This document shows, piece after piece, positions 7,048 through 23,418 of a stretch of 24,426 bases of DNA; positions within the stretch are counted from its first letter, which is position 1; each line of letters starts with the position of its first letter. The notes beneath the pieces are model-generated. The model had not been told where the DNA came from and did no database searches. It saw only the letters and a list, made by a program, of their open reading frames with translations. A program made the translations under genes and the position numbers. Origin of the DNA: a virus (Duplodnaviria; Heunggongvirae; Uroviricota; Caudoviricetes); the IMG/VR virus record IMGVR_UViG_3300029473_000227, positions 1 to 24,426 of that record; one strand, written 5' to 3'.

Positions 7048-7959
7048 ATGGACCAAACCACCGACATTCAGGCTTCTGAAGAATTAACCCTGCCCGGCAA
7101 TCATGCAGCGGCATCTGCTGATGGCTTAGTTGTCGATAATGCCAACGACATCGCAGGTCAGGAAGAAGGCTTCGAGATTGTCCTGAAAGACGATGAGAAA
7201 CCAAAACAAGACCCGGCAACTAATGCTGAATTTGCCCGTCGCCGCATCGAACGCAAACGCCAGCGTGAGCTTGAGCAGCAGATGGAAGCGGTTAAGCGTG
7301 GAGAGTTGCCGGAGCACCTGCGGGTGAACCCTGAGTTACCAAAACAACCAGACCCTAACGATTATCTTTCCGAAGATGCGCTGGCTAAGTACGACTATGA
7401 CCAGAGCCGCGCACTGGCTGCCTTCCAGCAGGCAAACAGTGAATGGCAGATCAAGGCTATGGACGCACGAAGCCAGGCTGTCGCCGAGCAGGGTCGCAAA
7501 ACTCAGGAGTTCACCCAGCAATCAGCGCAATACGTCGAGGCAGCCCGTAAGCACTACGACGCAGCGGAAAAGCTCAATATCCCTGACTATCAGGAGAAAG
7601 AGGATGCATTCATGCAACTGGTGCCGCCAGCAGTCGGTGCCGACATCATGCGCCTCTTCCCGGAGAAATCCGCTGCTCTCATGTATCACCTTGGTGCTAA
7701 TCCTGAGAAAACACGCCAGTTGCTGGCGATGGACGGGCAATCCGCGCTGATTGAACTCACTCGACTGTCAGAACGTTTAACTCTCAAGCCTCGAGCCAAG
7801 CCTGTTTCAGAAGCCCCGTTACCTGATGAACCCATTCATGGACACGCTGTTGCTGCAAATATCTCTGCGATTGAAAAGCAGATGGAAGCGGCAGCAAACA
7901 AAGGGGATGTAGAGACGTACCGCAAGCTCAAGGCGCAACTGAATAAAGGAATTCGATAA
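7048..7959 (+). CDS. scaffolding protein (P22 gp8-like)
   Basis: 303 aa (P22 gp8 is 303 aa); acidic, helical, charged; positioned between portal and coat. Confidence 0.9.
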
Positions 7960-9254
7960 TGGCATTAAATGAAGGTCAACTGGTCACGTATGCTCTGGAT
8001 GAAATCATCGAAACCGCCCAGAACCTGACGCCAATGGCGTCCAAAGTGACAAAATACACCCCTCCGGCAGAATCCATGCAGCGTTCAAGCAACACCGTGT
8101 GGATGCCTGTTGAGCAGGAAGCGCCAACCCAGACTGGCTGGGATTTAACTGGCAACGCAACAGGGATTCTGGAACTCTCCGTGAAATGCAACATGGGCGA
8201 TCCGGATAACGATTTCTTCGAGCTTCGTGCAGATGACCTGCGTGATGAGCGTTCTTACCGTCGCCGCATCCAGGCATCCGCTAAAAAACTGGCGAATAAC
8301 ATTGAGTCAGCAATTGCCAAACAGGCAACTGAAATGGGCTCACTTGTTGTTCACGATACCCGAGCAATTGGTCCATCTACTGGCCTGTCTGGCTGGGATT
8401 TTGTGTCTGATGCAGAGCGCCTGATGTTCTCCCGTGAGCTAAACCGCGATATGGGCATCAGTTACTTCCTGAACCCTGACGATTACCGCAAAGCGGGCCG
8501 CAACCTGGTAGATGGTGACATCTTCGGGCGCGTTCCTGAAGATGCATATCACAACGGTACTATTCAGCGTCAGATTGCTGGCTTTGATGAAATTCTTCGC
8601 TCACCGAAACTTCCGGCAGTTACCAAGTCAACCGCTACTGGTGTAACTGTTTCTGGTGCGCAGAAGTTTAAGCCGCAGGCATACACCCTTGATACCGATG
8701 GTAACAAAGAGAACGTCGACAACCGTGTTGCAACGGTGACCGTATCCTCCACCACCGGATTTAAGCGCGGCGACAAAATCAGCTTCACTGGTGTGAAATT
8801 CCTGTCTCAGATGGCGAAGAACGTGCTGACTGATGATGCGACTTTCTCAATCACCCGTGTGATCGATGGTACTCATATCGAAATCACGCCGAAACCGATT
8901 GCACTGGATGACGCGTCACTGACAAAAGAAGAGAAGGCTTACGCTAACGTAAACACCTCTCTTGCTGATACCACTCCGGTAAACGTTCTGAACGTGGCAA
9001 CAACCACCGCTAACGTGTTCTGGGCTGATGACTCAATCCGCCTGCTGTCTCAGCCGATTCCGGTAACCCATGAACTGTTTGCTGGCATGAAAACGTCTTC
9101 CTTCAGCATTCCAGGCATTGGTGTTAACGGCATCTTCGCAACGCAGGGTGATATCAACACTCTGTCTGGTAAGTGCCGTATTGCTGTGTGGTATTCAGCA
9201 TGTGCTGTACGACCAGAGGCAATTGGTGTTGGTCTGCCTAACCAGACTGCGTGA
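7959..9254 (+). CDS. major coat protein (P22 gp5-like)
   Basis: 431 aa; start overlaps the scaffold stop (TAATG); synteny and size match P22 gp5. Confidence 0.93.
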
Positions 9255-9262
9255 TAACCAGA

Positions 9263-9284
9263 GGGAGCTTCGGCTCCCTTTTTT
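9263..9284 (+). terminator. Rho-independent terminator/attenuator immediately after the coat gene
   Basis: Stem gggagc / gctccc, loop ttcg, six T residues; begins 9 nt after the coat stop. Confidence 0.7.
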
Positions 9285-9298
9285 ATCTGGAGACAAGC

Positions 9299-9523
9299 AT
9301 GACACACATGATCTTTCGTCATGGCGACATGAAGAAGTGGAAAGGCGTTGGCTACGACTTTGAAATCGTGAAAGCCGAAGAGCTTCAGGAATATCTGGAT
9401 GCTGGCTGGTTTTCACATCCTGATGACCTTTTGAAGGATGTTGCAGAGCCAGAAGAAAAACAGCGTAAAAAGCCCGGTCGAAAACCTAAGGCGGCAGCAG
9501 ATGAACCTGACAACGAAGGGTGA
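9299..9523 (+). CDS. small hypothetical protein with a lysine-rich C-terminal tail
   Basis: 74 aa from ATG 9299 (GGAG 9289-9292). The ORF-track GTG start at 9251 would run through the terminator and is rejected. 3' end overlaps gp4. Confidence 0.5.
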
Positions 9524-10001
9524 TTTAGTTCTTGCGGCATTACGTAAGCTCGGTGTGGCATCAAATGCCACGTTAACCGATGTCGAACCGCAGTCTATGG
9601 AAGATGGTGTCAACGACCTTGAAATGATGATGGCGGAATGGCTTGGCGGTGATGCGTCACCAGGTATCAACGTTGGCTACATTTTCGCTGATGCAGATGT
9701 CGCTCCAGATCCTGGCGATGAACACGGTTTATCAAATAACGCTATCAATGCCGTCATTTTCAACCTTGCCTGCCGCATTGCTCCGGATTATGCGCTGGAA
9801 GCGTCTGCAAAACTTATAACCACTGCCAGATACGGGAAAGAGCGACTCGTCAAACTGTCTGCAATGGACAGAGCAAAAGCCGCAAAATGTAAGTCCGGTT
9901 ATCCAAATCGTATGCCTGTTGGCAGTGGAAACCAGTTGGCGAAGTGGAACGGTTGGAATTACTTCCACCGAAAGGAACCTTGCGATAACGGGAGCAAATA
10001 A
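9501..10001 (+). CDS. gp4-like tail accessory (head-closure) protein
   Basis: 166 aa, same as P22 gp4; N-terminus [33 protein letters not shown] resembles recalled P22 gp4. Confidence 0.88.
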
Positions 10002-11419
10002 TGCCGATTCAGCAACTTCCGCTTATGAAAGGTGTCGGCAAAGACTTCCGAAACGCCGACTATATCGACTATCTGCCAGTGAATATGTTGGCTACACCAA
10101 AAGAAATCCTTAACAGCAGCGGATATCTTCGCTCATTCCCGGGAATTGCCAAACGTTCTGATGTGAACGGCGTATCGCGAGGTGTCGAGTACAACATGGC
10201 GCAGAATGCTGTTTATCGCGTTTGCGGTGGGAAGCTCTACAAAGGCGAAAGCGAAGTCGGTGACGTCGCCGGAAGTGGTCGCGTATCAATGGCACATGGT
10301 CGGACATCTCAGGCTGTAGGCGTTAATGGTCAACTGGTCGAGTATCGCTATGATGGTACGGTTAAAACCGTCTCAAACTGGCCTGCAGACAGCGGATTCA
10401 CGCAGTATGAGTTAGGCTCAGTCCGCGACATTACGCGATTACGTGGGCGTTATGCGTGGTCAAAAGACGGCACCGATTCATGGTTTATCACTGACCTTGA
10501 AGACGAATCGCATCCTGACCGCTACAGCGCACAATATCGCGCAGAGTCTCAGCCTGACGGAATCATCGGCATCGGAACATGGCGAGACTTCATCGTCTGC
10601 TTTGGTTCATCGACGATTGAATATTTCTCCCTGACGGGTGCAACCACCGTTGGTGCTGCTTTGTATGTCGCACAGCCATCTCTTATGGTGCAGAAAGGCA
10701 TTGCCGGGACTTACTGCAAAACGCCGTTCGCTGATTCTTATGCGTTCATCAGCAATCCGGCAACAGGTGCGCCGTCTGTATATATCATCGGCTCCGGTCA
10801 GGTATCACCAATCGCCAGCGCGAGCATTGAGAAAATACTACGCTCCTACACTGCTGATGAACTGGCTGATGGCGTGATGGAATCGTTGCGGTTTGATGCT
10901 CATGAGTTGCTGATTATTCACCTGCCGCGCCATGTTCTTGTTTACGACGCATCTTCAAGCGCCAATGGTCCGCAATGGTGTGTGTTGAAAACAGGCCTGT
11001 ATGACGATGTGTACCGCGCTATCGACTTCATTTACGAAGGCAATCAGATAACGTGCGGCGATAAGCTGGAATCCGTGACCGGGAAATTGCAATTCGACAT
11101 CAGCAGCCAGTACGACAAGCAACAGGAACACCTGCTGTTTACTCCACTGTTCAAAGCGGATAACGCCAGAGTGTTCGACCTTGAGGTTGAATCGTCAACT
11201 GGCGTTGCGCAGTATGCTGACCGCCTTTTTCTCTCTGCAACCACTGACGGCATCAATTACGGGCGTGAGCAGATGATTGAGCAGAATGAACCGTTCGTTT
11301 ACGACAAACGTGTTTTGTGGAAGCGAGTCGGGCGCATCAGGAAAAATGTCGGCTTCAAATTGCGCGTTATCACGAAGTCACCTGTCACTCTGTCAGGCTG
11401 CCAGATAAGGATTGAGTAA
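10001..11419 (+). CDS. gp10-like tail accessory protein
   Basis: 472 aa, same as P22 gp10; [16 protein letters not shown]... C-terminus [14 protein letters not shown] coupling with gp4. Confidence 0.9.
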
Positions 11420-12372
11420 TGGCTGATTCGAATCTCAATGTGCCGGTGATCATCCAGGCTACGCGGCTCGATACATCAGTTCTTCCACGCAATATCTTCT
11501 CGCAGTCGTATCTGCTGTACGTTATTGCACAGGGTGCTGATGTTGGTAACGTGGCTAACAAGGCCAACGAGGCCGGACAGGGCGCTTATGATGCACAAGT
11601 CAGGAACGATGAGCAGGATGTCACCCTTGCAGACCATGAATCCAGAATTGAAGCTGCTGAAGCAACTCTCATCAATCATGAACATAGAATTGCAGCAGCG
11701 GAAAGCACTCTTGCAGATCATGAAACAAGGATTACGGCTGCTGAAACAGAGCTGGCTGATCACGAGACGCGAATTGCTGCCAATGAATCTGAGTTAGCAA
11801 ACCATGATGCGCGCATAACTCAGAATACAACCGATATCGACGCACTTGATACCAGGCTCACAGCGGCAGAGGGAAGTATTTCGACGCTACAAAGCACAGT
11901 TGGTGATCACTCAACAAGAATATCTGCGCTTGAGTATGCCACCACGCGCAAGAAATCAGAGGTTGTTTACTCAGGGGTATCGGTAACAATTCCGACAGCG
12001 CCTACCAACCTTGTTAGCCTGCTGAAAACGCTCACGCCGTCATCCGGCACGTTGGCACCATTCTTCGACACCGTTAACAACAAGATGGTTGTGTTCAACG
12101 AGAACAAAACCCTGTTCTTCAAGCTGTCGATTGTCGGGACGTGGCCCAGTGGAACCGCCAACAGGTCAATGCAGCTAACCTTTTCCGGCTCTGTTCCTGA
12201 CACACTGGTAAGCAGTCGCAACTCGGCGACAACGACCGATAACATCCTGTTAGCTACGTTCTTCAGCGTGGATAAAGACGGCTTTCTTGCCACAAATGGC
12301 AGCACGTTAACCATTCAGTCGAATGGTGCGTCGTTTACTGCCACAACCATCAAGATAATCGCGGAGCAGTAA
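11419..12372 (+). CDS. tail needle (gp26-like) with extended C-terminal knob domain
   Basis: 317 aa; N-terminus [39 protein letters not shown] matches P22 gp26; five degenerate 14-residue coiled-coil repeats; C-terminal about 150 residues unlike P22. Confidence 0.85.
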
Positions 12373-12827
12373 TGATTCAGTTCAAACCAACGCGAAACAT
12401 CGACCTGATAGAAGCCGTGGGAAATCACCCCGACATTATCACCGGGAGCAACAACGGTGATGGATACGACTACAAGCCTGAATGCCGTTACTTCGAGGTG
12501 AACGTGCACGGGCAGTTCGGCGGCATTGTTTACTATCAGGAGATTCAGCCGCTTACATTCGATTGCCACGCCATGTACCTGCCAGAGGTTCGTGGATTCA
12601 GCAAGGAAATCGGGATGGCGTTCTGGCGATACATTCTTACTAACACCACCGTTCAGTGCATCACATCGTTCGCCGCACGCAAATTCCGCCACGGGCAGAT
12701 TTACTGCGCAATGATTGGCCTTAAGCGTGTCGGAACCATCAAGAAATACTTCAAAGGCGTGGATGACGTGACATTTTACAGTGCTACACGCGAAGAACTA
12801 ATCGAATTCCTGAATCACGGGAGATAG
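12372..12827 (+). CDS. gp14-position protein (head-completion/ejection accessory), assigned by synteny
   Basis: 151 aa; TAATG coupling with the needle gene; sequence not recognised from memory. Confidence 0.55.
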   Translation: MIQFKPTRNIDLIEAVGNHPDIITGSNNGDGYDYKPECRYFEVNVHGQFGGIVYYQEIQPLTFDCHAMYLPEVRGFSKEIGMAFWRYILTNTTVQCITSFAARKFRHGQIYCAMIGLKRVGTIKKYFKGVDDVTFYSATREELIEFLNHGR

Positions 12828-12829
12828 CC

Positions 12830-13525
12830 ATGTTATATGCATTTAAGCTGGGCAGAAAACTGCGCGGCGAGGAACCTTATTGCCCTGAAAAAGGCGGGAA
12901 AGGTGGCAGTTCTGATAAAAGCGCAAAGTATGCCGCAGAAGCTCAGAAGTATGCAGCAGACCTGCAAAATCAGCAGTTCAACACCATCATGAACAACCTG
13001 AAGCCGTTTACTCCTCTGGCTGATAAGTATGTCGGCAGCCTCGAGAACTTATCGTCTCTGGAAGGGCAAGGTCAGGCACTTAACCAGTATTACAACTCTC
13101 AGCAGTACAAAGATCTTGCTGGTCAGGCTCGCTATCAGAGTCTGGCGGCAGCGGAAGCAACAGGTGGATTGGGTTCCACTGCAACCGGTAATCAGTTAGC
13201 AACAATCGCACCAACGCTTGGTCAGCAATGGCTATCTGGTCAGATGAACAACTACCAGAATCTGGCAAATATTGGTCTTGGCGCACTGCAAGGTCAGGCA
13301 AACGCCGGGCAGACATATGCCAACAACATGAGTCAGATTTCGCAGCAAAGTGCGGCTCTTGCAGCGGCAAATGCCAACAGACCATCAGCAATGCAATCTG
13401 CTATTGGCGGAGGTGCGTCTGGTGCTATTGCTGGGGCTGGACTTGCGAAATTAATTGGTTCATCAACTCCGTGGGGTGCTGGTATCGGTGCTGGTATCGG
13501 TCTGCTTGGTTCACTGCTTTATTAA
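12830..13525 (+). CDS. ejection protein gp7-like
   Basis: 231 aa; MLYAFKLGRKLRGEEPYCPEKGGKGG N-terminus, Gln/Ala/Gly-rich body, hydrophobic Gly-rich C-terminus. Confidence 0.8.
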   Translation: MLYAFKLGRKLRGEEPYCPEKGGKGGSSDKSAKYAAEAQKYAADLQNQQFNTIMNNLKPFTPLADKYVGSLENLSSLEGQGQALNQYYNSQQYKDLAGQARYQSLAAAEATGGLGSTATGNQLATIAPTLGQQWLSGQMNNYQNLANIGLGALQGQANAGQTYANNMSQISQQSAALAAANANRPSAMQSAIGGGASGAIAGAGLAKLIGSSTPWGAGIGAGIGLLGSLLY

Positions 13526-13535
13526 GGGGTAATCA

Positions 13536-14900
13536 ATGGCTACGTGGCAACAGGGTATTAATTCTGGTGGTTTTCTGGCTGGCATCGGTACGCAAAATGA
13601 GAATGCGCCAAAGGCAAGCGACATTAACGCAACGCTTGGTATGATCCGCGAAAACAATGAACTGGCTCGCTCAGGTGCAAATAACGTTGGCCTGACCGCG
13701 TTACGTGGTCTGGCTGGAGTTGCTGATATTTACAATCAGGAACAGCAACAGAAAGCTATTAGTGCGTTCAATAAGGTTCACGCTGATGCATGGGCTTCTG
13801 GTGATCCATCGGGACTATTTAAGTTTGCCCAGGAAAATCCAGCGTTTGTTGCACAGGCACAACAGGCGTTTTCCGGTCTTAATGATCAGCAACGCAACGA
13901 TATGGGCGATTTAGCCATGAGGGCTAACGTCGCTCTTTCTCAGGGACCGGAAGCCTACAGTAAATTCATTACTGACAACAAGGACAGGTTAAATCGCGTT
14001 GGTGCTAATGCTGACTGGATGATTCAGACAGGTATCCAGAATCCAGAGCAGCTATCACACATGCTGACTACTATGTCTCTCGGTGCGCTTGGACCAGAAA
14101 AGGCGTTTGCTGTTCAGGATAAGATGGTTGGTCGTGAGATTGACCGAGGCCAGCTGGCAGAGACAATCCGCAGCAATAAGGCTGGAGAGGCGCTAACAGC
14201 ACGTGGTCAGAATATCACGATGCGCGGTCAGGATTTATCGATGCAGAGAGCATCAATGAAAGGGTCGGTTGGGAATAATGAGCGTACAGTTCAGTTAGCA
14301 GATGGCAGAACTGTAACGGTAGGCGGGAAGCTTCACGGCGCTGGGGCTAATGCGTTCTACGAAGGTATCGACAACGAGGGGAATATGGTTCGCGTTCCTG
14401 CTGGCTCTATTGCCGCTCCGGCTACATCGGCAGCAAGCGCGCAGAATTACGCAATGAAGAAAGATCTTGATGCAATTTCTGGTGCATCAATTGACGATCT
14501 TGGCTTCATGACTGGCATTACAGGCTCTTCAGGTTCTCCTGCTCTTGGTGCAGATATTCGTAGCCGTGCATCTGGTGGTGATCAGAGGAAACTATACAAC
14601 GCTGCACAGCGAATCCAAGGAAAGATGCAGAATCAGGGCATTGCAGCAGCCAGAGACATGGGGGCATCCGGTATCAACACCGTTGCAGAAGCAAAGATGT
14701 ATTTTCAAGGTATGCCACAGGTTGATTTCTCAAGCCCTGAAGCACTGCAACAATCAATGCGCGACATTCAGCAATATACCGACAATTACAACCAACAATA
14801 TAACGTTAATGTTGGTAAATCTCAGCGGCAGCAATCTCAACCTACACAGGTATCACAGCCAGCAGCCAGCAGTAACTTTTCTTCACTATGGGGTGATTAA
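13536..14900 (+). CDS. ejection protein gp20-like
   Basis: 454 aa; position and size consistent with P22 gp20 (about 470 aa). Confidence 0.8.
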
Positions 14901-18097: not shown

Positions 18098-19000
18098 ATG
18101 AATAGTATAGCAATTTTAGAAGCAGTGAACACCTCTTACGTACCATTCAACGGTCAGCAAATTATCACCGCCATGGCTGCCGGAGTTGCATACGTTGCGA
18201 TGAAGCCAATCGTTGAAAACCTTGGAATGAGTTGGGGTACTCAGCAACAAAAACTTATGAAACAACTAGATAAGTTCAACTGTATTCATATGAATATGGT
18301 TGCCGCTGATGGGAAGCTTCGTAAGCTACTCTGCCTTCCTTTGAAGAAGTTAAATGGATGGCTGTTCAGCATCAACCCTGAGAAAGTTCGAGCTGACATC
18401 CGCGATAAACTGATTCAGTACCAGGAGGAATGCTTTAGCGTGCTGCATGACTACTGGACAAAGGGAAAGGCAGAAAATGCACGTAAGAAAACATCTGTTG
18501 ATGACAGGACTCCGCTTCGTGATGCTGTAAATATGCTGGTCAGCAAAAAGCATCTAATGTACCCAGAAGCTTATGCAATGATTCATCAGCGTTTCAATGT
18601 GGAAAGTATTGAAGAGCTTGATGCATCTCAGATACCGCAAGCCGTAGAGTACATCCACAGGGTAGTGCTTGAAGGTGAGTTCATTGGCAAACAAGAGAAG
18701 AAAACCAACGAGCTTTCTGCAAAAGAAGCAAACAGCCTTGTATGGTTATGGGATTATGCCAACCGCTCACAGGCATTATTCCGCGAACTGTATCCGGCGC
18801 TGAAACAAATTCAATCGAACTATTCCGGCAGATGCTACGACTACGGTCATGAATTCTCGTATGTTATCGGAATGGCGAGAGACGTTTTAATCAATCACAC
18901 ACGAGATGTTGATATCAATGAGCCAGACGGACCAGCGAATCTTTCCGCATGGATGAGACTTAAGAATAAAGAATTACCTCCTTCAGTACATAACTACTGA
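18098..19000 (+). CDS. ant: antirepressor Ant
   Basis: 300 aa from ATG 18098 (GGAG 18084-18087); N-terminus [21 protein letters not shown]; follows mnt-arc as in P22. Confidence 0.9.
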
Positions 19001-19018
19001 CAGATAACCAACGCAACG

Positions 19019-19042
19019 ACCCAGCTTCGGCTGGGTTTTTTT
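19019..19042 (+). terminator. Rho-independent terminator after ant
   Basis: Stem acccagc / gctgggt, loop ttcg, seven T residues. Confidence 0.75.
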
Positions 19043-19100
19043 ATGCCCAAAATTCACCGTAGCCATGCTGCGGCGATTCCTTGTATCTGGAGCAAATTAA

Positions 19101-19163
19101 ATGACAGACATTACCTACTCAACAGATGGTCAGCAACCATGTTTGCTGCCTTATAAGCTATAG
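19101..19163 (+). pseudogene. stranded ancestral tailspike 5' end (RBS + ATG ACA GAC ATT ACC = MTDIT) truncated by the HNH cassette
   Basis: GGAG at 19089-19092 then ATG 19101; the first five codons equal the P22 tailspike N-terminus MTDIT; frame terminates after 20 codons; the HNH stop codon (19111-19113) overlaps it. Confidence 0.55.
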
Positions 19164-19611
19164 CCGCTTCATCAATGGTGTTGAATCTCCCAAGGGTTAT
19201 GTTTTTACCTGAGACATTTATCTGAGCTTGCCATTGATTTCTGGCTTGACAGAAAGTTACCCCCTTGATTCCAGCATTGCTATTTCGAGGTCCGACATTT
19301 AATGCATTTACGACTCTGCTAACATCCCTAAGGTTTGAGATTGCGTTATTTCTTCTGTTTCTATCAATGTGGTCAATCTCTTGTTTGGGCCATTCGCCAT
19401 ATACATACAGCCAGGCAAGTCTATGTGCAAAATATCTTACGCCATCAATATTAATCGCGTTATATCCATAAGAAATTGTGCCAGCAACTTTCCCAACAGC
19501 ACCTCTGGCGCTTAATTTCTTTTTCCAAGTGAAAATTCCTGTTTCTTTATTGTAATCGAGAACCTCCATAAGGCGATCCCGAGTTACTACCTCGTGACGT
19601 CTCTTACTCAT
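19111..19611 (-). CDS. HNH homing endonuclease with C-terminal AP2 DNA-binding domain
   Basis: 166 aa from ATG 19611 (GGAG 8 nt upstream; the ORF track starts at TTG 19653); HNH motif [27 protein letters not shown]2-like [44 protein letters not shown]. Confidence 0.85.
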
Positions 19612-19651
19612 TATTTTCTCCGGAATGTTTATTATGCCAGAACAATTATAC
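19114..19651 (-). mobile_element. homing-endonuclease cassette inserted into the tailspike 5' coding region (approximate limits)
   Basis: Contains the HNH ORF, its RBS and a perfect minus-strand TATAAT (plus 19645-19650); flanked on the left by the ancestral tailspike start and on the right by the resumption of conserved tailspike codons (NVVVS at 19652). Confidence 0.6.
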
Positions 19652-21835
19652 AACGTTGTTGTTTCACAACCAAGTCAGTTATTTACTTTAGCTCGCTCGT
19701 TTAAAGCAAATGCTAATGGTAAAATTTATATCGGTAAAATTGACACGGACCCTGTAAACCCTGAAAACCAGATTCAGGTTTATGTGGAGAACGAAGATGG
19801 CTCTCACGTTCCTGTTTCGCAACCAATAATCATTAACGCCGCTGGTTATCCTGTATATAACGGACAGATTGCCAAATTCGTTACCGTGCAAGGCCATTCT
19901 ATGGCTGTGTACGATGCATATGGGGCGCAGCAATTCTATTTTCCTAATGTGCTGAAGTATGACCCTGATCAACTTGAACAGCGATTATCACTGCCTACAG
20001 CACCTGAGATTATAGGGGTATATCCATCAGGTAAATTAGCAGATGTATTAAATGATGTAACCCCGGAGCAATTCGGAGCTATCGGTGATGGGGTTGCTGA
20101 CGATACGCAGGCATTAAAGGCTATGTTTAAATACATCAATGACATGCCGATTTCATTCACAGACACAGCAACAGAACTTAACCCCCACCTGGATGTGGCA
20201 GCAAAACGTGTTGTTTTGCGCGGCCTGTACATGCACACAGAGACAATCTTTATTCCTTCTGGGGTGCAGATTTTCCAGCCTGGATACTCTTATTTCCGCC
20301 GAAACGTGCAGCAAGGTTTTTATTTCAACCCTCCTTCTGGGGAAGAAAACATGGCTGCTGTTGGTACTTATGTTTATTTGAAGTCCGGTAATACCTGGTA
20401 TCTTAATTCTGACCCAATGTTACTTCCACAGGGCGCACAGATAGATAATGGCACTATCCGCACAGGAGCTAGACACATTGATATTGAGAATCTTAGTATC
20501 ATTACCAAGCCTGGAACCTTGCTTGGTTTACGCTGGTTAGGTGCAGCAGGATGCACAACTCGCAATCTAAGTATTGGTGAGAACACACCAAACAGCACAG
20601 CATCAACCGCCAGAATTCCTAAGGTTGGTATGCTTCACAGTATTGCTTGGGGCAGTGTTCACACAACACCTAAGATTCTATACAAAACTCAAGGTGCTGT
20701 TTTCTACGAGCAAAACGGTGGTTCTGAGGTGAAAAACGCTTACATTGCTCGTCTTGGGCAGGATTCAACTTATTCAGAACAGGTAATTTATAAACCGGAA
20801 GATTTTGACGAAACCGGCGATGTCGCAATTACACAGTACGGGCGCAGTTCTGTGCAGTTCAGGTATTGTGTAACAGAAACATGCTCATTCATGTATGTTA
20901 ACCAGGGTGATGCAAGAAGTAACGGCGGACTTAAGGTTGACGGTTGTCACATGGAAGCCACGGATGGTAAGGCGAAACATTGTTTCTATATTATCAACTC
21001 AGACGCTGATATTCGATTAAACGGTCTGTTTATCCAGGATAGCTCCATTCCTTCCAGTAGCGTGATTTTTGTTAAAAATTGCCAGAAGGGAAGAAGTGTA
21101 ATTGATGTTCACGGATACATGATGTTCAACGGTTACCGATTGCTGGACGGGGAAAACTCTGGAGAAGTCGTAAACTTACGTAACCCAAACGGCGGTCAAT
21201 ACCAATACGGAAAGCTCGGCAAATGGTCGCTGGTTAATGAAGTTACCGGCGTTTCTCCTCAGACTTTGTACATTGATCCGGTTAACGGAGATGACGAAAA
21301 CTGGGGTTTCCACAGCGGAAAAACGCTAAAAACGTTAACTTATGCCGCCAAAATCTGCCGCATGTTTGGTGTAACCGATATCTATACTAACGCAGGTAGT
21401 ATTACATTAACTGCGGATACGGACCTGCCTTCTGCCACGATTCGTGGCGCTGGTGGGATCGTGTGTAACGCAAACGGGAGCTTAGTTGCCTCACGTAAAA
21501 CCAATGTGAACCTGACTCTAGCTGATGGGGTAACAAGCCCTGCTGGTTACCATCTCATAAAGATAAACACTACGGAGCCCGTCGTCGTAGTATCTACCTG
21601 CGATATGACCACAACAACTGCCGCGAACATATTTCTTTTCCAGTCGAACGGTAATGTTGAATGGACGCATAGGGCCGGTGGTGGTCTGGCGTGTTATCGT
21701 TATGCAGGCACTCAGTCAGCAACATATTCGGCAGTGATTGGTTTGAATATCAGGTCTACAACCAGACCAGCTATAGATTCGACACCTGTATCTGGTAATG
21801 TTGTTACTAAATACTCTTCTATTTTGAAATCTTAA
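19625..21835 (+). CDS. tailspike protein: conserved P22/HK620-type head-binding domain plus divergent beta-helix receptor-binding domain
   Basis: 736 aa; residues about 10-116 ([11 protein letters not shown]...NVLKYDPDQ) match the P22/HK620 tailspike N-terminal domain from memory; the rest is unlike P22. Start may be ATG 19634, which restores P22 spacing before NVVVS; neither ATG has a good SD. Confidence 0.88.
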
Positions 21836-22024
21836 AAATATATCCCCAGTAGGGGCTATATAAATTTAACATTTATTTAATCAATGAGTTCTAAAAGGCA
21901 TGAAGTCTATCATCCAAGTCTCAATCGATCGATACTTGCTGTGGTTGATGAGACAAAACTGAGACAAACAAAGCTTTGCATCGGTTTGCAAGGCTTTGTG
22001 CTATTCGATAGTTGTTAAGGTGGT

Positions 22025-23182
22025 TCACTCCACCTTCTCATCAAGCCAGTCCGCCCACCACTGCATCATTTCTCTGCGCTTATCGAGATACTGAGCATGG
22101 TTGTAAATTCCGCGCACAGATCCGCCGTTGGCATGTGCCAGTTGCACTTCAATAGCGTCAGCAGGCCATTCGTGCTCGTTCATAACCGTGCTGAATTCAT
22201 GCCTGAATCCGTGACCGCTTTCCAGACCCTCATAGCCGATTTGTTTGATCACAAGCAATACCGCATTCTCGCAGATTGGCTTCTTCTTATCGTTGCGCCC
22301 GGCAAAAACAAACTCTGATACTGGTTTAGTGATGGAGCTTAGCGTAGTGAGAAGTTCAACCACCTGGTCTGACATAGGAACCACATGAATTTTGCGTCCC
22401 TTCATCACACTGGCGTCGATGGTGATAATCCTGTTTTCAAAATCGACGTTCTTCCATTGCATGGAACGAAGCTCTTTCGTTCTTAGGGCTGTGTAGCGCA
22501 AAACTTTAGTCGCAATGAGCGATACGATACTTCCTGAAAATGTTGCCAGTGCTTTATTGAATGCCGGGATCTGGTCTGCAGGAAGAAACGGGAAGTTTTT
22601 CTTGCGGTATCCCTTCATGGCGTCAGCAAGGTCAGGTGCCGGGTTATATTTAGCCCTACCAGTGACAATAGCGTAACGGAAAACCTCGCCGCATCTTCTG
22701 CGGGCTTTATTTGCTCGCTCCATTGCACCGCGATCTTCAAATCTGCGGATTACTTCCAGCAGTTGCATCGGCTCAATCTCCTGAATTTCAAGGCCGCCGA
22801 TGATAGGTAAAATGTCGTCATCAAACATTTTTGCAAGTTCAGTCGCATACCCTACTGACCATACTTGCTTCTTGTGCTCGTACCATTCCTTGTAAATCGC
22901 ACTAAAGGAATTGTTGTTAGACGAAGCCTTTTTCGCCTTTACCGGATCGATGCCAACCGAGATGTCTTTCCTCGCAGTCCATGCCTTATCCCTTGCCTCC
23001 TGCAAAGTCATTAGCGGATATTTTCCTACGGTCAGGATTTTCTCCTTACCGTCAATCTTGTAGCGAAGCTGCCATACCTTTTTCCCGGATACAGGGACAT
23101 AAAGGTACAGGCCATTACCATCGAGAAGGCGGTATGGTTTTTCTTTCGGCTTTGCTGCTTCAATCTGCTTAACGGTGAGCAT
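22025..23182 (-). CDS. intS: tyrosine integrase (P4-type, IntS-like)
   Basis: 385 aa from ATG 23182 (MLTVKQIEAAKPKEKPYRLLDGNGLYLYV...); C-terminal catalytic region with ...HGFRHEF...LAHANGGSVRGIYNHAQY; adjacent to tRNA-Arg. The ORF-track GTG start at 23218 is considered less likely. Confidence 0.9.
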   Translation of the reverse strand: MLTVKQIEAAKPKEKPYRLLDGNGLYLYVPVSGKKVWQLRYKIDGKEKILTVGKYPLMTLQEARDKAWTARKDISVGIDPVKAKKASSNNNSFSAIYKEWYEHKKQVWSVGYATELAKMFDDDILPIIGGLEIQEIEPMQLLEVIRRFEDRGAMERANKARRRCGEVFRYAIVTGRAKYNPAPDLADAMKGYRKKNFPFLPADQIPAFNKALATFSGSIVSLIATKVLRYTALRTKELRSMQWKNVDFENRIITIDASVMKGRKIHVVPMSDQVVELLTTLSSITKPVSEFVFAGRNDKKKPICENAVLLVIKQIGYEGLESGHGFRHEFSTVMNEHEWPADAIEVQLAHANGGSVRGIYNHAQYLDKRREMMQWWADWLDEKVE

Positions 23183-23343: not shown

Positions 23344-23418
23344 TGGTGTCCCCTGCAGGAATCGAACCTGCAATTAGCCCTTAGGAGGGGCTCGTTATAT
23401 CCATTTAACTAAGAGGAC
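23344..23418 (-). tRNA. argW: tRNA-Arg (anticodon CCU), argW-like; prophage attachment site
   Basis: Reverse complement reads GTCCTCTTAGTTAAATGGATATAACGAGCCCCTCCTAAGGGCTAATTGCAGGTTCGATTCCTGCAGGGGACACCA (75 nt, CCA end, T-loop GGTTCGATTCC), matching E. coli argW as recalled. Confidence 0.9.

Follow-up and report, generated by a model that had tools for sequence, protein, structure and literature searches.

The tailspikes of the P22-like phages (Lederbergvirus), among them P22 gp9, Sf6 gp14 and HK620 gp9, serve as the sole receptor-binding proteins of their phages; each carries a head-binding domain that ends at a KYDPDQ junction, and the gene is located after those of the ejection proteins and the immI region. 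A receptor-binding region of a different family is known from TSP1 (ORF210) of the Kuttervirus CBA120, the crystal structure of which (4OJ5) has been determined at 1.8 Å resolution (Chen et al., 2014; PMC3966878). The catalytic centre of TSP1 was proposed to lie at the subunit interface and to comprise the adjacent Glu456 and Glu483 together with His481, Tyr411 and Trp380, and a substrate-assisted, retaining mechanism acting on an N-acetyl-hexosamine-containing repeat was suggested (PMC3966878). TSP1 recognizes the O:21 O-antigen of Salmonella Minnesota, a strain on which purified tailspikes were examined in clearing-zone spot assays and infection-inhibition assays (PMC8432352). Kapi1, a viable temperate phage, uses the O-antigen as its receptor and alters purified lipopolysaccharide (LPS; Kapi1 preprint). 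That receptor domains pass between Lederberg-, Kayfuna-, Kutter- and other viruses has been well established (PMC10408124; PMC8432352; PMC11990801). In this study, we analysed the tailspike gene in a 24,426-nucleotide stretch of viral DNA, IMG/VR record IMGVR_UViG_3300029473_000227, positions 1 to 24,426 (referred to below as the window). It is the single tailspike gene of an apparently complete P22-like prophage at the argW tRNA of Escherichia coli, and it shares with the tailspikes of P22, Sf6 and HK620 the head-binding domain, the KYDPDQ junction, the gene position and the role of sole receptor-binding protein, whereas its receptor domain is unrelated to theirs in sequence and its start region has been replaced by an HNH cassette.

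On our reading, which we hold to be very probable, the gene encodes a trimeric tailspike (the trimer being predicted from homology to the trimeric TSP1) that sets the host range of the prophage. Residues 1–113 would dock the trimer onto the hub of a P22-type tail, and residues ~125–733 would form a TSP1-type right-handed β-helix that binds a host surface polysaccharide, most likely the LPS O-antigen of E. coli. Cleavage of this polysaccharide, by a probable catalytic centre made up of the glutamate pair E415/E441 together with H439, Y370 and W339, would let the virion reach the outer membrane.

A P22-type anchor joined to a TSP1-type receptor domain

The tailspike open reading frame (ORF) runs without interruption over 19625..21835 on the plus strand, as do all features below unless stated otherwise, and was listed with 736 residues counted from its first ATG. 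From the in-frame ATG at 19634, the probable start codon, the coding sequence (CDS; 19634..21835) comprises 733 codons plus the stop, and the domain limits and catalytic residues are numbered in this form. The head-binding domain, the virion anchor of the protein, comprises residues 1–113 (19634..19972) and ends with KYDPDQ, the codons of which occupy 19955–19972. The Pfam model Head_binding (PF09008) covers residues 4–116 (E = 4.9e-64; score 214 bits, cutoff 24), and no other Pfam model is matched at E ≤ 1 across the whole protein. This agrees with the original prediction, which had placed a P22/HK620-type head-binding domain at residues ~10–116 of a mosaic tailspike. In a sequence search of the PDB, residues 7–119 align with Sf6 gp14 (7sg7; E = 1.8e-60), the 113 aligned residues being nearly identical, and also with P22 chains (2vky, 8tvr and 1lkt).

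The homology to other P22-like prophages breaks off at the end of this domain. E. coli GN04171 is 97% identical to the window in nucleotide sequence over 19000–19971 and then unrelated until 22012; Kapi1 is likewise 97% identical over 19000–19977, with homology resuming at 22035. Among 5,426 complete E. coli genomes, the best matches stop at query positions 963–978, which correspond to 19962–19977 of the window. The break at 19971–19977 is common to three prophages with three unrelated receptor domains, and it coincides with the sharp transition after KYDPDQ that had been predicted near nucleotide 19970. It is followed by an 11-residue linker between anchor and receptor domain (19973..20005); where the anchor is of another type, an L-R-x-x-L segment stands in the corresponding place (alignment A1, columns ~360–400). 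On the opposite side, a 3′ flank (21836..22011) travels with the receptor cassette in the P22-like prophages, up to the points at which homology to GN04171 and Kapi1 resumes. On our reading, the receptor domain forms a cassette exchanged by horizontal transfer, delimited on the left by the KYDPDQ junction and on the right just before int. Such a mosaic architecture is the expected state of a tailspike gene of this kind and leaves the understanding of tailspike modularity unchanged.

The receptor-binding domain, with putative depolymerase activity (residues 125–733; 20006..21832), is homologous to residues 169–767 of TSP1. A phmmer search of the PDB matched residues 128–732 to this region of 4oj5_A with E = 6e-140, and the TSP1-family profile PHROG 18484 was matched over its positions 169–767 of 770 with E = 4.9e-143. 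In a BLASTP alignment beginning at residue 125–126, 246 of 610 positions are identical (40%), with 16 gap positions. By these matches, the C-terminal ~610 residues belong to the CBA120 TSP1/orf210 family, and the label 'unrecognised' that had been attached to the domain no longer applies. Its description as pectate-lyase-like holds at the level of the fold and not at that of the family models, since Pectate_lyase_3 and its relatives in Pfam gave no hit at E ≤ 1 and the related PDB matches, to Phi92 gp150 (E = 2.6e-6) and to a β-1,3-glucanase (E = 0.2), are short, motif-level ones at residues 120–180. The β-helix fold itself is assigned by homology to a crystal structure over the 605-residue match. 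No match was obtained to the receptor domains of P22, Sf6 and HK620, for which the PDB hits are confined to residues ~7–119 (9–117 for the P22 entries 8tvr, 2xc1 and 5gai); the expectation that the C-terminal part is not the P22 endorhamnosidase domain, residues ~120–666 of gp9, was thereby borne out.

The relationship to TSP1 extends end to end over the receptor region (TSP1 residues 169–767 against 125–730 here) and does not include the anchor. TSP1 has an N-terminus of its own, of the Tail_spike_N type (PF18668), for the branched Ackermannviridae complex, whereas the window protein has the P22 head-binding domain. Since PF18668 gave no hit and the alignment starts at residue 169 of TSP1, the protein is not a whole-protein orthologue of TSP1. 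A full-length close match to a characterized tailspike was sought and not found, the best characterized relative matching in the receptor domain only (40%). In every sequence feature by which the two groups are recognized, the window protein is a Lederbergvirus tailspike with a TSP1-type receptor domain, and not a P22-type endorhamnosidase.

The residues that correspond to the catalytic cluster proposed for TSP1 are encoded within 20648..20956, and their codons were verified: W339 (20648–50; Trp380 in TSP1), Y370 (20741–43; Tyr411), E415 (20876–78; Glu456), H439 (20948–50; His481) and E441 (20954–56; Glu483). None of the five residues varies across the 12 sequences of alignment A1, which include P0012, a P22-like tailspike only 41% identical to the window protein over the receptor domain. 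Their conservation in A1, and in TSP1 at 40% identity, provides independent support for the Glu–Glu site proposed for TSP1.

The receptor domain is itself mosaic when set beside two of its relatives. P0010 and P0011 match the window protein almost residue for residue over ~100 positions at each end of the domain and are strongly diverged in the central β-helix (A1 columns ~400–1019), with 65–70% identity overall, a pattern that suggests either recombination inside the receptor domain or local diversification of the sugar-binding surface.

Relatives of the receptor domain and its probable receptor

Among 1.84 billion representative proteins, 65 clusters match the TSP1-like family at E ≤ 1e-3, of which 21 reach E ≤ 1e-30; the family is therefore small. 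A tblastn search of 50,697 GenBank phage records returned only Kuttervirus proteins of the TSP1/TSP4 type, at 40–41% identity, and none closer. The exact protein exists in nine database copies, assigned to E. coli where labelled; the copies retrieved with their DNA are all in the same argW prophage context, on metagenomic or draft contigs from human-gut or similar assemblies.

A closer clade of receptor domains, with 65–93% identity, is found on at least five other phage chassis. One member, P0003, belongs to another P22-like prophage (L007), and three, P0002, P0005 and P0006, are from a 38.7-kb genome that is 94% identical to the Kayfunavirus Baskent_phicoli_1 over 89% of the 22.5-kb stretch compared. 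The receptor-domain DNA is 92% identical to that of the phage with the Kayfunavirus backbone over 20024–21838. At the protein level, the receptor domains of these four are 87–93% identical to that of the window, so their receptor is very probably the same; they differ from the window protein in the anchor, a T7-tail-fibre N-terminus plus Tail_spike_N in P0002, P0005 and P0006, or in the prophage locus in P0003. All four are absent from the GenBank phage set searched. Two siphovirus-type phages, the temperate L012 (P0011) and a second genome (P0008), and one temperate myovirus-type phage, L014 (P0009), carry the receptor domain on Tail_spike_N anchors. P0012, with 59% identity to TSP1 and 41% to the window protein, brings the diverged clades of the receptor domain to at least three.

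Three independent temperate carriers of the closer clade have O-antigen-modifying genes immediately downstream of the tailspike, and they are the reason for which an O-antigen is preferred here to a capsule. In L007, gtrABC (7906–10593) directly follows the tailspike gene; L012 has Acyl_transf_3 (12295–13368) and L014 has Glycos_transf_2 and Glucos_trans_II (12312–14649) beside it, in both cases convergent with it. The 3′ flank of the window is shared by L007 to 21876, gtrABC being inserted at the equivalent of window ~21870. These adjacent modifier genes are the best available argument for the O-antigen over a capsule as the receptor. Across very different chassis, tailspike and O-antigen modifier are apparently linked.

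Several points weigh against an O-antigen-cleaving tailspike of the kind proposed. The enzymatic activity of the window protein and of its close relatives is predicted from homology, and the TSP1 catalytic site is a structural proposal of the 2014 paper, for which no mutagenesis test was found (PMC3966878). An identity of 40% does not allow the specificity of TSP1 to be transferred. AlphaFold2, run on the 733-residue protein with the 12-sequence alignment, returned a model too poor for a fold search, with a mean predicted local distance difference test score (pLDDT) of 50 and a predicted template-modelling score (pTM) of 0.48. Neither megablast nor sensitive blastn matched the receptor domain in any of the 5,426 complete E. 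coli genomes. P22-like tailspikes can moreover target capsules, as that of the Lederbergvirus CUS-3 targets K1 (PMC11990801), and the ~190 nucleotides between tailspike and int in the window (21836–22024) hold no O-antigen-modifying gene. In the K-12 gene order, the O-antigen cluster is expected more than 300 kb from argW.

Two other specificities have to be weighed against an E. coli O-antigen distinct from that of TSP1. It is unlikely that the domain is a diverged orthologue with the specificity of TSP1 itself, directed at a Salmonella O:21-like repeat. The end-to-end homology and the identical proposed catalytic cluster would fit such a view, and under the rule of Pas et al. (at least 30% identity and at least 60% coverage) the two proteins fall into the same receptor-binding protein (RBP) subtype (PMC10408124). 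Tailspikes with a shared receptor are, however, grouped by Sorensen et al. at 75–100% identity (PMC8432352), as against 40% here; P0012, in another of the at least three diverged clades, is far closer to TSP1 than to the window protein; and the host is E. coli, not Salmonella. As an E. coli counterpart of Salmonella O:21, the literature yielded only the E. coli O21/S. enterica O38 pair, which is a different antigen. With 60% of the receptor-domain positions differing from TSP1, the specificity is probably different, and one differing from that of P22, for an O-antigen or a capsule, is plausible.

It is also quite unlikely that the target is a capsular or other exopolysaccharide, such as a K antigen or colanic acid, instead of the O-antigen. 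The example of CUS-3 and the lack of a modifier gene beside the window tailspike would agree with such a target, as would the second-best PHROG hit, 8280 ('tail spike protein with colanic acid degradation activity'), but the latter match is confined to residues 7–174, i.e. the anchor. The only characterized homologue of the receptor domain, TSP1, is O-antigen specific, and in the three temperate relatives gtr or acyltransferase genes stand directly beside the domain. An O-antigen receptor remains the preferred assignment.

The HNH-AP2 cassette and the start of translation

An antisense HNH-AP2 cassette of 537 nucleotides is inserted at codons 5–6 of the tailspike gene and is absent from empty-site alleles; past the endonuclease gene, it includes 40 nucleotides that hold a substitute start. 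A blastn comparison of the flanks with the HNH-free allele L008 places the 537 nucleotides where L008 has 4, and an alignment shows the site empty in N7 and HK620 and filled in the window and Kapi1. The endonuclease gene (19111..19611, minus strand; ATG 19611–19609, stop 19113–19111) encodes 166 residues that match PF13392 HNH_3 (E = 2.2e-16), AP2 (E = 3.6e-6, below the Pfam cutoff) and the HNH endonuclease family PHROG 99 (E = 1.6e-62); its Shine–Dalgarno (SD) sequence is GGAG, with a predicted duplex energy of −6.6 kcal/mol. Upstream of the insert lies a relic of the canonical tailspike 5′ boundary (19044..19115), in which the ancestral ribosome-binding site (RBS) TCTGGAGC and the ATG at 19101–19103 are retained (19088–19103 together), followed by MTDIT to 19115. 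In ~95 phages (N7, CUS-3, epsilon34, HK620 and others), the sequence across the annotated tailspike start is 95–100% identical to this segment, and in CUS-3 the matching segment is annotated as 'boundary sequence'. All that now follows from the ancestral ATG is a dead-end ORF of 20 codons, out of frame with the tailspike; 533 nucleotides separate the two ATGs. The RBS of this relic start (19101–19163) is still good (−5.6 kcal/mol), and the 20-residue peptide that it would yield is encoded opposite the 3′ end of the HNH gene. The right end of the cassette (19612..19720) contains the substitute start region and ~28 recoded tailspike codons: the first 60 nucleotides of the CDS are only ~50% identical to the HNH-free N7 and L007 (15–16 of 30 per bin), with the protein largely conserved, as against 29–30 of 30 in the HNH-carrying Kapi1 and GN04171, and from nucleotide ~90 onwards the CDS is 93–97% identical to N7.

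The cassette is present in 15 of the 5,426 complete E. coli genomes, at 98.7–99.4% identity, and occurs together with at least three unrelated receptor domains, those of the window, Kapi1 and GN04171. The Kapi1 tailspike (MT813197, Kapi1_067) has the same arrangement. It shares the argW site, the cassette (99.4% over 657 nucleotides) and the relic, the substitute start, with the 20 nucleotides upstream of the tailspike ATG and the first codons identical, the MPEQLY N-terminus and a head-binding domain that is 97.5% identical; it differs in its receptor domain, which is unrelated after KYDPDQ (791 residues in all, with no similarity past residue 121). A description of the cassette was not found in the papers searched, and the Kapi1 preprint does not mention the HNH gene. 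In its anatomy, the cassette is built like a free-standing homing endonuclease gene whose target has been recoded. With the free-standing HNH homing endonuclease genes of phages (T-even seg/mob type) it shares a small HNH ORF, presence or absence at exact boundaries, a site in an essential conserved gene region and a flank heavily recoded in carriers; unlike these, the window element, whose homing and cleavage are putative, is antisense and supplies a new start codon.

The tailspike is probably translated from ATG 19634 rather than from ATG 19625. The former is preferred because it restores exactly the canonical N-terminal length (P22/N7 type, with six residues before NVVV as in MTDITA-NVVV), because the equivalent ATG is the annotated GenBank/RefSeq start in GN04171 and Kapi1, and because the 733-residue form dominates the database copies. 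The exact 733-residue protein is the representative of a cluster of nine members, named E. coli phage tailspike or head-binding-domain protein, and the 736-residue form is known only as a Joint Genome Institute (JGI) call. The predicted SD:anti-SD duplex has −2.6 kcal/mol at ATG 19625 and −3.5 kcal/mol at ATG 19634, as against −5.6 kcal/mol at canonical P22-like tailspike starts and −5.5 to −8.4 kcal/mol at six other ORF starts in the late-gene region of the window. The weak initiation context named in the original prediction is real, although it had been assigned to 19625 and more likely concerns 19634; its cause, the HNH cassette, had not been noticed there. Initiation would take place at a weak site consisting of GGA (19621–19623) and a 9-nucleotide A/U-rich spacer, in a region computed as unstructured (−4.3 kcal/mol). 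This site is supplied by the cassette, which displaced the original RBS and ATG 533 nucleotides upstream, and the start is weak because the insertion fell within the first codons of the gene. A palindrome, TCCGGA (19619–19624), lies between the two divergent start codons, which are 22 nucleotides apart; it contributes the GGAG of the HNH gene on the minus strand and only GGA for the tailspike on the plus strand.

A terminator-like hairpin with a T-run was called by a terminator scan after the antirepressor gene (19018..19037). In the HK620 record, tANT is annotated immediately before the aligned segment, and the stem-loop and T-run of the window are conserved in HK620 (alignment A3). No convincing sigma-70 promoter was found just upstream of the tailspike, a scan of 3.2 kb giving two weak sites against 7.1 expected by chance; this fits expression via read-through from the late operon. 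In P22, late transcripts read past the ant terminator into the tailspike gene, and the window gene would likewise be expressed from late transcripts extending beyond ant and its terminator.

It is highly improbable that the gene is a decaying or poorly expressed remnant that lost its RBS to the HNH insertion. The SD is indeed reduced to GGA (−3.5 as against −5.6 kcal/mol) and the ancestral start leads into a dead end, but the full-length tailspike ORF is intact and as long as in its relatives, its start region is unstructured, and the late-gene ORFs of the window are uninterrupted and of the expected sizes. Kapi1, with the same cassette and start region, forms infectious particles that need the O-antigen, so the cassette-supplied start is compatible with function. 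Hardly credible is the view that the insert is an intron or a translational-bypass element, with ATG 19101 still serving as the tailspike start. Upstream of the insert, the old RBS and ATG and the first five codons are indeed kept almost perfectly, but no Rfam family, group I and II introns included, was found at E ≤ 1 in 18900–22100 (the ground on which an intron was rejected). The endonuclease is moreover encoded on the opposite strand; the relic reading frame closes after 20 codons and, with 533 nucleotides between the ATGs, is not that of the tailspike; and an in-frame ATG stands at the exact canonical distance from NVVV in all three HNH-carrying alleles compared (window, Kapi1 and GN04171).

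Prophage context and significance

The gene lies in a context of portal-to-ejection-protein genes, mnt/arc/ant, int and tRNA-Arg; the gene order was taken with Pfam labels from L001, a sequence identical to the window over 19000–22100. The tailspike closes the late operon: gp7/gp20/gp16 and mnt/arc/ant precede it, and int/att adjoins it. Eight nucleotides past its stop codon, a hairpin, CCCC-AGTA-GGGG (21844–21855), is flanked by inverted AT-rich runs; it was not called by the terminator scan. It is followed on the minus strand by the prophage integrase, of the IntS type (22025..23182; Pfam Phage_integrase plus arm-binding domains), and by the attachment-site tRNA-Arg(CCT) (23344–23418, minus strand), beyond which lies a host yfdC-like gene. 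The order intS–tRNA-Arg–yfdC is likewise annotated in E. coli GN04171.

How a mobile gene can recast the initiation site of an essential virion gene while the phage stays viable is neatly illustrated by the HNH insertion. We regard it as doubtful that the cassette is an active homing element aimed at the conserved 5′ boundary of P22-like tailspike genes. Its own start, weak RBS and ~28 recoded codons might then serve to keep the essential gene working, and double-strand breaks made at this site in co-resident or co-infecting P22-like genomes might lead to repair tracts that extend into the tailspike and help to move receptor cassettes. If this were true, the element would shift receptor-binding cassettes, and hence host range, between phages.

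Tailspike receptor domains decide which O-serogroup can be attacked by a phage or a phage-derived bacteriocin, and the window adds a rare, uncharacterized variant of the TSP1 fold to their catalogue. The occurrence of the same receptor cassette on podovirus-, siphovirus- and myovirus-type chassis is useful for the engineering of chimeric tailspikes.

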